Shown in pieces: positions 57,936 through 63,473 of a stretch of DNA of 64,000 nucleotides. This stretch comes from a virus (Duplodnaviria; Caudoviricetes): the IMG/VR virus record IMGVR_UViG_3300025678_000005, one strand, 5' to 3'. A program made the position numbers and the translations under genes. A model generated the notes under the pieces. It was given only the letters and a program-made list of their open reading frames with translations, had not been told where the DNA came from and searched no databases. Position 1 is the first letter of the stretch, and each line of letters starts with the position of its first letter.

Positions 57936-60194
57936 TTATAGATGCAATATTTCACAGGAATTGCCATTACAAGCCTGTGCAGAATAATGATTAATTTCTT
58001 TATATTCTGGTTTTGTTAAAATAGTATTAAATTTAACTGTTTTAAATTGTCTGTTAATAACTTCTCATTTGTGTAAAAGATTCAAATCCTTTAAACAATA
58101 TATAGTCTTTTGTAAATCTCCACCAAAATAATTATTTGCAAACTTTTTAACTCTGCTAATCCAATACTTTTTTAATATTATTTGTTCCTTTGTTCCAGTT
58201 ATTTGTAGTTTTCTATCTTTAACCAAATCACATGCAGCTCATAAATTTTCATTAAAGTAATGCAATCCATCAACTATTAAACCAGAAGCAAATAATACAC
58301 CACGACCATATCTATCCATTAGTTCTTGTTCTGCAAGTATAGATGTATATGGAGCTTGATTATAATCTTTATCTATAGAATCAGTAACAAATGATACTGC
58401 TGTAAAATATTCTCTATTATCTCATATATAATCTATCATTTCTGAAAGATTATCTATAATAACAGTATTAGAAGTATTATGATGTGTTCCTTTATAAGCG
58501 CCAAGTTCTTCATTTACACCAATATTTACTCAATTTTCCTGTACAAATTTTATTAACTCAAGATGTTTTATTCCTTTTAAATCTTGTTTATATAAACCAT
58601 CTGTATTGTTTTCTATTGGAATAAATATAGCATAATCAGAATTATTCTGTGAGTCTAAGGCATCTTCTAATAAAAAAGACATATTTTTATTTAACCATTT
58701 TGCTATTTCATTTGATTTATTTATTCGCATTATTCTAAAATATTTTTTTGCATGTTCTGGATGTATGCCAGAAGCAGTGCCAAGAATAACGGAAGAGTTG
58801 CCAGAAGGTTTTACACAAGTCAATCTGGCTGCTGGAGATACATTTATAAAATTACCAATGACTTTATTTGTTTCTTTAATTACTTTAACTCCGTGTTCTA
58901 ACCATTCCTCATTAAATAACTTTGTATTATTCATCCACCCTGTAATAGAAATACCCAGCAGTGAATCTTGTTGAACTATTTCTTTTGTTGTGTCACCCAA
59001 ATAATCAAAATTATTATAACCACACTGTACTGTTCCAAGTATAGCAGCAGCTTTACAGGCATCTATGAATTTTTCTTCAGTAGTACAATTCTCTGCATTT
59101 ATCTCAGTTAAATTGCAAAAAGAAACTCCAAGATCTTGAAGATGATCTTTTATAAATTCTTCTAATTCATTATAAGATAATTCATTTATCTTTTTATCAA
59201 ATCTTTTATAAGCTATTGGATGTTGTAAAATTTCAAAACAAGGATTGAACATATCAAATCAAGAATTTGCAAAAGCAAATCCAATATCGTTTTTTTCATT
59301 ATTTAAAGAAATAATTTTATCAAATTGTTCTTTACTTGTTTCATTTCTTAATAATAAGACAGAATTATTTGTTCTGCTTCTTTGTGGATTGTCTATCCAC
59401 CAATTTCCAGTCTTGGCATTAATCATCTCTTCATCATTAATATCAACAATCATACACATTGCTGACCTTCTAATACCACCACTTAATACTGCTTCAGATG
59501 CAAAACATAAAATGTCACAAACAAGTATTGGTCTAATAACACATCCTTCTGTCTTTATTCAATTGTCAAGTAATTTTTCTATATTATTAAGTGCTTTTCT
59601 AAGGCCTTCCGATCCAGGGGCTTTAAATCCACCAGATATATAAGATCCTTCTGGTCTTATTCTTGAATAATCAAATTTTATTTTTTTACCAGCATATTGT
59701 GGAAAAGGTTGATTTGTGCTAAAATAAGATGACATTAAAACACCAAGAGCATCTGCTCAACTTTCTATATTGTCTTCAATATAAAAAGTCTCTGTTCCAG
59801 TAGTTCTTTCTTGTAGTCTTGGTAAATTATTAACAAATGGAAGTAATAATCCTATTCCAACACCACAACCACACAAAGAAAGATAAAACACTTCTTGAAA
59901 TACTCTTGGCCTTGCAGCATATATTGTAGAACAATTATATAATCTTGCATTATGTTTTTCTATTTGTTCATTCCTATATTGCAAACTTCTTTGTGATGCT
60001 AAAACATTTTTTGATTTCATTTGCTTAAGAGCAAATTCTAAATATCTATTTAAATCTTCATTATTATAATGCTTGATATGTCCAGATATAATATCCTCAC
60101 AAGCCTCCTCTCATGTTTCATATCTATCATCTTTCCATTTCAGGTAATCTGAATACAGTTTTAAATCACTTAAAAATTTTTTTCCTTTTTCCAT
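57936..60194 (-). CDS. nrdJ: Ribonucleotide reductase, probably class II (B12-dependent, monomeric type); 752 aa, code 4
   Basis: YET[W]EEAC, SQRSLQY..YNC, FNPCFEI, FCNLTEIN, TCVKPSGN, C-terminal ACNGNSCEI. No beta subunit nearby. Confidence 0.8.
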
Positions 60195-60215
60195 ATAATA
60201 TAAATATAGTTTATT

Positions 60216-60250
60216 AAAAAAGCCCATTATTCCAATATAAAATAATGGGC
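60216..60250 (-). terminator. Terminator-like hairpin directly upstream of the RNR
   Basis: GCCCATTATT/AATAATGGGC 10-bp stem followed by T6 on the minus strand. Confidence 0.7.
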
Positions 60251-60322
60251 CTGTAATTGGTTAATGTGAGATGTTTATACTTTAAAATATTCTAATATTT
60301 TCTCTTGTCACATACCGCATAC

Positions 60323-60490
60323 TTATAATCTATGATAATTTTTTACCTTATCTCCTACTAAATCTGGCTCGTATTCAAGTAATGTCTGTCTTATAAATTT
60401 TTTTGATGGGTTGCCCAACATTAGTTGTATGCCAGCATACGTATATCCTTCTTTTCTCAGTTCTATAATTTTCTCTTGTAGTTCTGTCAT
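60323..60490 (-). CDS. Small HTH protein
   Basis: MTELQEKIIELRKEGYTYAGIQLMLGNPSK. ATG 60490 is preferred because the listed GTG start overlaps the tRNA. Confidence 0.7.
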   Translation of the reverse strand: MTELQEKIIELRKEGYTYAGIQLMLGNPSKKFIRQTLLEYEPDLVGDKVKNYHRL

Positions 60491-60508
60491 TTTATGTACT
60501 TTTAGCTG

Positions 60509-60581
60509 CACCCTCGCCCCGATTCGAACAGAGATCTGACAATTTTGAAGATTGTGGTTTTACCAATTAAACTACGAAGGT
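60509..60581 (-). tRNA. Opal-suppressor tRNA, anticodon TCA (predicted tRNA-Trp(UCA))
   Basis: Acceptor ACCTTCG/CGAGGGT plus discriminator G; D-arm GTTT-AATTGGTA-AAAC; anticodon arm ACAAT-CT[TCA]AA-ATTGT; T-arm CTCTG-TTCGAAT-CGGGG. Short variable loop; no encoded CCA. Confidence 0.93.
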
Positions 60582-60597
60582 ATTTATTTTTCATATA

Positions 60598-60605
60598 CAA
60601 AGTTA
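60598..60605 (-). promoter_or_regulatory. Bacteroidota-type -7 element for the tRNA
   Basis: TAACTTTG ending 16 nt before the tRNA 5' end. Confidence 0.6.
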
Positions 60606-60744
60606 TGTAAAATTATATGATATATATTAAAAAATTTATTGTTTATGAAAATATTACTTTGTTTTAATTGGTAGACATATTTCTATATAATTTTATTTGT
60701 TTTATATATTATTTTTTAATTATATTGCCTATAAAATAGAAATT

Positions 60745-60966
60745 TTAATTAATATCTTCAAATATTTGTTTTAAAAATTCAAATGTAAGAGCATTTAATT
60801 TTGTTGAAATATATTTATCTAAATCAAGTCCAGTAGAGTAAATTTCTATTGTCTCGTCATCAAATCTAATAGTTCAAAAATCTTTTTTAAATTCATCCAT
60901 TATACTGTTATAATTTCTAGAAAATACACTCTCATCTAATAGTTTAATTATTTCTTTTTTTGTCAT
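60745..60966 (-). CDS. Hypothetical protein (73 aa, one in-frame TGA)
   Basis: MTKKEIIKLLDES...KKDF[W]TIRFDDETIEIY...EDIN-TAA. Confidence 0.55.
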
Positions 60967-62694: not shown

Positions 62695-63417
62695 TTATAT
62701 TACTATCTCATCATCAATCTTCTTCTCAATTTTATCAAGTCTCTTATTTAATCTCTGTATCTCATTAATTAATAAATCTACATCCTTTGCGGTAGCACTT
62801 GTTTTTTCTTTCAAATCATTAATATCTTCTTCGTGTTTCTTAAGTATCCATATAATGGCTTGTCCCAGAGCATTTAAATTAAATATCTTTTCATTAATAA
62901 TAATTCCAGTGGTAGAATCCTTTGCTTCCGTCCTAATAGTTGTTAAAAATCCCTTCTTTTCCAAAGACTTATGATACTTTACAATAGAATTATATGACAT
63001 GTTTATCTTCTTTGATAACTCATAATCTGTGTATGTAACTTTTCCATATCCAGGCAAATCTTTATACATATATTGTTGCTCTGCAATGATTAAAGCCTTC
63101 TCTTCTGTAGTTATATCTGTTCTATCTAAAAATTCATAACTGAAAGGCTCAAAACCCTTATACATGTTAAACACATATAGATTACTTCTGCCCCTCTTTT
63201 TTATCATAATATAGCTATACTTAACCAATTTATTAATTGCCTTTAGAACTGTTTTCTTGGATACTCCTGACTTCTTTACAATGGTAGACAAAGAAGGAAA
63301 ACAACTATAAGTATTTCTATTTATAAATTTCTTTATTGTAACATAAACTAATAAATCTTTTGGAGTTAATTCCTCATTTATTGTCATATCATTTGGTAAT
63401 TGTACATGTTGCTTCAT
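62695..63417 (-). CDS. Tandem winged-HTH Rep-initiator-like protein with C-terminal coiled coil
   Basis: LTPKDLLVY...CFPSLSTIVKKSGVSKKTVLKAI..L..Y.YI...GRSNLY (HTH_36-like), then a second HTH. No in-frame TGA. Confidence 0.75.
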   Translation of the reverse strand: MKQHVQLPNDMTINEELTPKDLLVYVTIKKFINRNTYSCFPSLSTIVKKSGVSKKTVLKAINKLVKYSYIMIKKRGRSNLYVFNMYKGFEPFSYEFLDRTDITTEEKALIIAEQQYMYKDLPGYGKVTYTDYELSKKINMSYNSIVKYHKSLEKKGFLTTIRTEAKDSTTGIIINEKIFNLNALGQAIIWILKKHEEDINDLKEKTSATAKDVDLLINEIQRLNKRLDKIEKKIDDEIVI

Positions 63418-63438: not shown

Positions 63439-63473
63439 CAAAGATACAAAAAAATTTTCAAATAACTACCAAA
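63439..63473 (-). promoter_or_regulatory. Bacteroidota sigma-A type promoter
   Basis: TTTG-N23-TATCTTTG, 21 nt upstream of the Rep-like ATG. Confidence 0.65.

Follow-up and report, generated by a model that had tools for sequence, protein, structure and literature searches.

A suppressor tRNA(UCA), a small helix-turn-helix-type protein and a structured RNA as the probable core of a conserved operon for code change in a TGA-recoded phage

The locus described here lies on the minus strand at positions 60216 to 60605 of a 64,000-nucleotide (nt) stretch of viral DNA (hereafter the window), which corresponds to bases 19-64018 of the 138,532-bp virus record IMGVR_UViG_3300025678_000005 (GC content 26.7%). 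In the direction of transcription, it contains a candidate promoter element, a tRNA gene with the anticodon UCA, a gene for a 55-amino-acid (aa) protein of the helix-turn-helix (HTH) type, a conserved structured RNA and an intrinsic terminator, and it is flanked upstream by a small conserved open reading frame (ORF), here called ORF-X, and downstream by a ribonucleotide reductase (RNR)-like gene. An earlier reading of these letters, referred to as the original prediction, had taken the parts for a compact cassette, self-contained from promoter to hairpin, that installs opal decoding under the host code. We found that the tRNA and the HTH-type gene form a conserved pair at the head of a genome arm where TGA is read as tryptophan (Trp), and that the locus may represent the core of a conserved code-change operon. 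Related loci are denoted by L numbers below.

The tRNA gene (60508..60581, minus strand) was recognized by ARAGORN, which delimited 74 nt with the anticodon loop CUUCAAA, and by the Rfam tRNA model RF00005, which scored 55.2 bits (gathering score, 29), confirming the complete tRNA with a TCA anticodon, A1-U72 and G73 that had been proposed. Its cloverleaf contains A1-U72, G73, A9 and a canonical T-loop, and it is the sole tRNA of the 138,532-bp record. Bacterial tryptophanyl-tRNA synthetase (TrpRS) uses G73 as the major identity element and A1:U72 and G5:C68 as minor ones, the anticodon also belonging to the set (PMC12135181). Of these elements, the window tRNA has G73 and A1-U72, with U-A instead of G-C at 5:68; across the relatives G73 never varies, and U occupies position 72 in 11 of 12. 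Together with A9, the CU-NCA-AAA anticodon loop, the short variable loop and the 7/5 acceptor/T-stem arrangement, which are likewise features of bacterial tRNATrp, this makes the molecule look, in its sequence, like a bacterial tRNATrp in all respects but the anticodon, the detailed differences being UCA in place of CCA, the 5:68 pair and a CCA end that is not encoded. Because G73 and A1:U72 are present and E. coli TrpRS need not tell C34 from U34 (PMC12135181), charging of tRNA(UCA) by the host TrpRS appears plausible. The tRNA part of the case is solid.

Other tRNA(UCA) genes occur among the relatives. At the equivalent spot of two RNR-bearing relatives (L020:3564-3656, the same as L116, and L010:4540-4634) there is a different tRNA(UCA) of 93-95 nt with a long variable arm (class II shape) and G73, and no HTH homologue lies nearby. 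In L129 (2911-2982), the acceptor, D and anticodon arms of the tRNA(UCA) are normal, but its T-loop reads GGCAGGA in place of TTCGAAT; that it was missed by both ARAGORN and the Rfam tRNA model illustrates why suppressor tRNAs are under-counted in recoded phages.

The genome around the tRNA is laid out in two codes, with TGA read as Trp. Under translation table 4, the two arms on the minus strand (1-60.3 kb and 112-138.5 kb), which hold the genes for structure, packaging, RNR and giant virion proteins, form long genes with 245 TGA versus 75 TGG codons, and the plus-strand arm (63.5-112 kb) has 11 TGA versus 98 TGG, so that the TGA share of Trp codons is 75-81% on the former and 10% on the latter. 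Several plus-arm ORFs have their sole TGA 1-7 codons ahead of TAA (for example genome 73037-73408 and 101847-102236); many of the plus-arm TGA codons are therefore probably real stops, and the TAA would probably back them up in case of suppressor read-through.

The first large recoded gene downstream of the tRNA unit is the RNR-like gene (57936..60194, minus strand; PHROG 367, E = 1e-70). The 3′ arm of the terminator overlaps its first ATG (60227), which makes the ATG at 60194 the likelier start. The gene contains 8 TGA and 7 TGG codons, and all eight TGA codons align with conserved Trp in six relatives; together with the identity elements of the tRNA, this alignment points to the tRNATrp-like opal suppressor that the original prediction had envisaged, here heading a TGA-rich arm. 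When the RNR genes of L001-L080 were compared, L020 had 3 TGA and 11 TGG codons and about 75 relatives had 0 and 14, respectively, a series that reads as graded stages of recoding after acquisition of the tRNA. The three RNR TGA codons of L020 also align with conserved Trp. Some relatives with no TGA in RNR already carry tRNA(UCA).

Neither a release factor nor a synthetase had been noticed in the window, and the same result was obtained for the whole genome: a six-frame search of the 138.5-kb record matched neither the release-factor families PF00472 and PF03462 nor the class Ib synthetase domain PF00579, by which TrpRS was sought and which was matched in all control genomes. The tRNA(UCA), which heads the left recoded arm, is the one recognisable element of code change in the genome. 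A terminal direct repeat of 78 nt (77/78 identical; genome 1-78 and 138440-138517) suggests that the genome is closed or terminally redundant, and the assembly is thus probably complete despite a CheckV completeness estimate of 75%. At its very end the record has 15 bases that are the reverse complement of a section of this repeat, probably an assembly artefact. The portal, large terminase and major head protein matched crAss-type PHROGs, and the terminase shared 29% identity with crAss-like phages and 47% with a phage contig from the human gut that has no annotation; in a blastn search, 60200-60700 had no match among deposited phages. The carrier is a distant crAss-like phage, probably with a Bacteroidota host.

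The small gene (60323..60490, minus strand; ATG at 60490, TAA at 60323) starts 17 nt past C74 of the tRNA, or 18 nt past G73, exactly where a Trp-free gene had been predicted. It contains neither TGG nor TGA, and in 21 distinct small members of its family all 15 Trp codons are TGG and none is TGA, so the proposed readability in the standard code was borne out. The window protein and its homologues in L085 and L092 end in ...NYHRL (window 60323-60334), and most relatives run four residues further to a Trp (TGG), indicating that the family's usual single Trp was lost from the 55-aa forms. The 60 homologues (alignment A1) are 55-62 aa long, share 61-85% identity and contain the invariant motif LGNPSKK.I.

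Searches of Pfam (none at E <= 0.1), PHROG and PDB sequences with the 55-aa protein returned nothing significant. An AlphaFold model based on 26 homologues (predicted local distance difference test score, pLDDT, 86.9) contained three helices at residues 3-13, 18-25 and 30-40 with a glycine-containing turn predicted ahead of the third, resembling the three-helix fold of small HTH domains such as HTH_23, the HTH_7 resolvase domain, Sigma70_r4_2, GerE/LuxR and the small-terminase N-domain. The structural neighbours of the model, all of them DNA-binding HTH domains (of LuxR/GerE, sigma region 4, resolvase, Tc3 and small-terminase N-domain type), were found at weak scores (Foldseek E of at least 0.3, Z <= 5.2), and the language-model neighbours were likewise DNA-binding HTH types. 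A family profile searched against 1.84 billion representatives collected 149 clusters, the remote ones containing tandem-HTH proteins (Pfam HTH_23, Sigma70_r4_2 and HTH_7) at E ~1e-9. The model and these profile links support the predicted HTH nature of the protein, although transitively only; unlike the families of the Pfam HTH clan, the protein is a stand-alone one of 55-59 aa, has its own invariant motif and fits no Pfam model at E = 0.1. On its fold alone, a transcription regulator, which would bind DNA of the tRNA unit or of the recoded arms, is the most likely of its possible roles.

The pairing of the two genes is conserved. In every close HTH relative that has upstream DNA, the HTH gene is preceded by a tRNA(UCA) in the same orientation, separated by 11-44 nt in L082, L085, L090, L095, L124 and L125 and by 17 nt in L129. 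In L137, whose HTH protein is 49% identical and whose neighbouring genes differ on both sides, the spacing is still 17 nt, and the HTH start codon follows the tRNA by 11-18 nt in seven lineages. RNR served to anchor 61 loci; of these, four have both features, 55 have neither, two have just the different tRNA(UCA), and in none does the HTH gene occur by itself. Linkage of tRNA and HTH gene in relatives had been named beforehand as the point on which the original prediction could fail, and it holds in every close relative examined. More distant homologues (L131, L132 and L134) have a C-terminal extension, and their short contigs show no tRNA; that of L133 lies ~700 nt after a seven-tRNA array with no UCA tRNA among its members. 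We regard the pair as likely to be a functional unit.

One way in which such a pair could function is in translation, with the protein damping release factor 2 (RF2), aiding TrpRS in accepting the UCA anticodon, or binding or protecting the tRNA. That would explain how a lone tRNA competes with RF2 in a probably complete genome with no release factor or synthetase found, where 75-81% of the late-arm Trp codons depend on suppression, and the protein is linked exclusively to tRNA(UCA) genes. Nevertheless, we consider a translation cofactor very unlikely: the fold, the language-model neighbours and the remote homologues are all of DNA-binding HTH types, no positive evidence speaks for such a role, and a helper may be unnecessary given that E. 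coli TrpRS need not discriminate U34 (PMC12135181).

The tRNA-HTH junction is also a recurrent site of insertion. In six lineages (L003, L081, L084, L088, L092 and L130), a gene has been inserted between tRNA and HTH, and each time it encodes an HNH endonuclease; the family-wide record is one of homing endonucleases repeatedly targeting this junction. Free-standing homing endonuclease genes are known to adjoin phage tRNA genes, as does that of SegB in the tRNA cluster of T4. As in the T4 case, the HNH genes share the orientation of a highly conserved tRNA gene next to which they were repeatedly inserted; unlike it, the inserts are seen in the relatives, and the window, which lacks one, represents the compact state. 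In L092 (2400-2990) and L093 (740-1331), 5′ and 3′ tRNA fragments flank an insert made up of a complete tRNA(UCA) and an HNH endonuclease gene, as if an endonuclease cassette with its own tRNA copy had landed in the resident tRNA gene.

These inserts raise the question of whether the HTH-type protein is itself part of a homing-endonuclease module, namely a free-standing DNA-binding domain of HNH enzymes that persists as a remnant, a target-site binder or a site protector. The flanking tRNA fragments and the six HNH insertions fit this idea, as does similarity at the protein level: the first 40 residues of an HNH endonuclease in L139 are 50% identical to the small protein, including the same first 11 residues, and a comparable HTH stretch is present in the L084 HNH protein (hhalign E = 4e-4). 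The N-terminus of the L003 HNH protein, by contrast, is not significantly similar (hhalign E = 0.064), and the stand-alone ORF has been kept intact, at the high identity given above, in more than 20 lineages, some of them without an HNH gene nearby. A homing origin of this kind strikes us as highly improbable as an account of the protein.

Between the HTH stop codon and the terminator, at 60253..60322 (minus strand), a 12-sequence alignment (A2) defined a conserved long-range RNA stem. It consists of three parts, GUAU/AUAC, GGU/ACC and AUGUGA/UCACAU, which close a variable interior of 35-70 nt. Pairing holds in 91.6% of the alignment cells, and compensatory changes are seen at 12 pairs; these values were reached by 0 of 500 shuffles, and slid alignments paired just 30-45%. 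The window copy, which folds with z = -3.9, is the only one in the phage genome. A search of 60100-60750 against Rfam 15 with E up to 10 gave chance-level rows only (E of at least 2.3). A scan of IMG/VR with the box pattern returned 24 loci, four of them true (three copies of one type and L116, which is L020), the rest being chance matches in unrelated GC-rich DNA. The element directly follows the long-arm tRNA(UCA) in L020 and a tRNA-Asn in L085, and is therefore a mark of the tRNA unit's 3′ end, not a part of the HTH gene. Two known classes were tried and rejected: the box ends misfit the RYYYAAC/GTTRRRY pattern of integron attC sites, and a riboswitch or ribozyme is unsupported, with no Rfam match and an interior that is not conserved.

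The intrinsic terminator (60216..60252, minus strand) follows directly, as a GC-rich hairpin with a T-run. Its stem (60252..60220) has 15 pairs, four of them GC, and leads into TTTTTT; compensatory changes occur in the relatives, and the terminator scan found two terminator-like sites in 2 kb versus 0.3 expected from shuffles. The strong hairpin noticed at first inspection is therefore real and carries a terminator, but as the end of the unit it is merely the last part of a larger conserved structured RNA. We regard the tRNA, the reading of TGA as Trp, the two-code layout, the conserved tRNA-HTH pairing, the predicted HTH fold, the structured RNA and the terminator as demonstrated.

A conserved stem with 12 compensatory pairs placed directly before a terminator, and present in a single copy in the phage genome, could be an attenuator or antitermination device that gates read-through from the tRNA unit into the recoded arm and RNR/PhoH, with either the protein or the level of the tRNA acting on the RNA or on RNA polymerase, so that transcription of the recoded genes would await abundant suppressor. 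No TAnnTTTG, the pattern of the promoter element discussed below, lies between terminator and RNR start in the window, L003, L085 or L092, so that expression of RNR in these genomes implies read-through; L082 and L088, in turn, have a long spacer with TAnnTTTG before PhoH. However, L020/L116 has the element right after its tRNA(UCA) with no HTH within 12 kb, and L137, L127 and L128 carry the HTH gene without the element directly downstream. A conserved alternative (antiterminator) pairing was not seen in the alignment, the stem interior is not conserved, unlike that of ligand-sensing leaders, and the protein fold matches DNA-binding domains. Attenuation is thus, in our judgement, quite unlikely to be what the element is for.

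Taking these observations together, we propose, at a probability of roughly 0.55, that the locus is a conserved code-change operon core with the order (ORF-X) - tRNA(UCA) - 17 nt - HTH protein - RNA stem - terminator. In this proposal, the host TrpRS would charge the tRNA, which would insert Trp at the ~245 in-frame TGA codons of both minus-strand arms. Given that the HTH start codon lies 11-18 nt behind the tRNA in seven lineages, the two most likely share a transcript, in which case the amount of the protein would track that of the tRNA. The protein, a predicted DNA-binding transcription regulator, would act on the tRNA unit or on the recoded arms, and the unit would be transcribed by the host and closed by the structured 3′ end and a leaky terminator. 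Host-type promoters speak for such transcription, being conserved at the operon's head in the relatives and present as four strong copies in the phage's own genome.

Several observations weigh against this proposal, some of them on the promoter. The sequence TAACTTTG (60598..60605, minus strand), a candidate Bacteroidota-type -7 element found by pattern match 16 nt upstream of the tRNA, fits the -7 pattern TAHHTTTG at a suitable distance from the predicted transcript start; as the G of the -7 element lies at -5 (PMC6847099), that start would be near 60593 and the tRNA leader 12 nt long. But TAnnTTTG occurs 133 times in the window versus 121.7 expected, a count reached by 20 of 100 shuffles, and its density of 2.45 per kb in intergenic DNA versus 2.09 per kb genome-wide is not above chance, which makes TAACTTTG alone no more than a chance match. 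A -33 TTTG at the expected spacing upstream of it was not found. The relatives have a well-conserved promoter of the Bacteroidota type (TTTG, spacer, TATCTTTGTA), yet it lies 17-48 nt upstream of ORF-X and not before the tRNA, and a matrix built from it gives the TAACTTTG site 2.4 bits, rank 25 in its own genome; with the relatives' promoter the site shares just the -7 core and the downstream bases (TAACTTTGTATAT). Of the host-type promoter in the original prediction, the motif therefore stands and its distinctiveness does not. A promoter directly before the window tRNA is possible, but the self-contained cassette from promoter to terminator does not hold across the family, in which the tRNA follows 5-15 nt after the end of ORF-X. 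Co-transcription of tRNA and HTH gene from a host-type promoter is something that we infer.

ORF-X itself adds to the difficulty. It encodes a 73-aa conserved small protein (60745..60966, minus strand), whose alignment with 10 homologues (A3) shows invariant W31, R34, E41, Y52 and L65. The window copy has a single TGA, at codon 31, the position of the invariant Trp31; since its sole Trp codon is TGA, ORF-X in the window would itself need the suppressor. As for regulation by the HTH protein, a repeated operator-like motif was not found in the phage genome, and the conserved boxes after the HTH stop codon are single-copy and covary like RNA. L020 and L010, moreover, combine the long-arm tRNA(UCA) with the RNA element and have no HTH gene nearby. 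The idea of a master switch with an autoregulator remains unproven.

The linkage can also be questioned. Close relatives share the gene order ORF-X, tRNA, HTH, (RNR), PhoH, PD-(D/E)XK nuclease, so the linkage may partly be inherited synteny, and because HNH genes of 130-290 codons can separate tRNA and HTH, tight spacing is not essential. On this basis, the two could be neighbours by descent, the HTH protein being an ordinary early regulator or DNA-binding protein kept beside the tRNA by conserved gene order. The shared order out to the nuclease, the tolerated HNH inserts, the short contigs of L131, L132 and L134 and the UCA-less array of L133 are all compatible with such an origin. It is harder to reconcile with L137, where the 17-nt pair persists although both flanking genes differ, with the recurrence of the 11-18 nt spacing in seven lineages, and with the RNR-anchored loci, where HTH without tRNA was seen in 0 of 61; even the L133 homologue adjoins tRNA genes. 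Mere neighbourhood therefore seems rather unlikely to us, and the operon core remains our preferred reading.

A stronger version of the operon core is that tRNA(UCA), the 55-aa protein and the RNA stem with its terminator form a dedicated device for the timing or efficiency of code switching. In the timing version, the protein, or the level of the tRNA, would control read-through at the stem and terminator, so that the recoded genes would be transcribed only after the suppressor has built up; in the efficiency version, the protein would be a cofactor of suppression and would tilt its competition with RF2. We put forward this extension tentatively, as an unlikely but specific possibility.

Further features of the genome and of the relatives surround this locus. 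Four strong matches to the relatives' promoter (TTTG, spacer, TATCTTTG), scoring 15.7-23.3 bits, are present in the phage genome, at window 63439-63446 (minus strand) and at genome 105231, 79905 and 107098 (all plus strand), and these copies support a Bacteroidota host. The one at window 63446 heads a DnaD-like replication-initiator gene (62695-63417). A model of the ORF-X protein (pLDDT 85.6) has an alpha-alpha-beta4-alpha layout, and a fold search with it gave no clear structural match (best Foldseek E = 0.36); likeness to immunity proteins, secretion chaperones and the C-terminal domain of T4 MotA was rejected, as the VIA-align Z scores (<= 5.7) were in the noise range. The genes that follow the tRNA unit in the relatives are heavily invaded by selfish elements, with LAGLIDADG inteins in RNR and PhoH and GIY-YIG genes beside RNR (invasions at L093:1632-4877, L084:6351-8153, L085:7132-7761 and L010:5400-5990).

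Opal suppressor tRNAs (tRNA-Sup-UCA) have been described in TGA-recoded crAss-like and other gut phages (Borges et al., bioRxiv 10.1101/2021.08.26.457843; PMC12386605). Like those phages, the window phage has a phage-encoded tRNA(UCA), low GC and in-frame TGA at Trp positions of structural and late genes, together with early genes compatible with the standard code and a host presumed to use that code. Recoding here reaches an RNR gene, and whereas the zeta crAss-like phage Lera carries 26 tRNAs (PMC12386605), the window phage has a single one, the suppressor. The closest parallel is the 'code change module' of the Jade phages, in which a suppressor tRNA, TrpRS and RF1 (release factor 1), written in the standard code, stand upstream of recoded lysis genes (bioRxiv 10.1101/2021.08.26.457843). 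Both arrangements place a short standard-code block with a TGA suppressor immediately upstream of recoded genes, and a drive of late expression has been proposed for both. Unlike the Jade module, the window phage lacks TrpRS and RF1, and its block includes the 55-aa HTH-type protein and ends in the conserved RNA stem and terminator. The passages of Borges et al. and PMC12386605 found by keyword search make no mention of a fixed protein partner or a structured RNA beside such a tRNA. Suppressor tRNAs and the tRNA/TrpRS/RF1 module are thus already described, and the present locus is the smallest such unit; it differs in having a dedicated HTH-type partner and a novel structured RNA, and it is conserved in many environmental phages.

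The way in which recoded phages make a standard-code host accept a new codon meaning is still mostly a matter of inference from lists of genes. Here, the entire recognisable code-change machinery comes down to a single tRNA accompanied by a protein and a structured RNA, within ~400 bp, a size that can be cloned and that makes the question of code switching directly testable. If the protein and the RNA do serve the timing or efficiency of the switch, they would be the first protein/RNA accessory beyond synthetases and release factors to have evolved for the reassignment of a stop codon in viruses.

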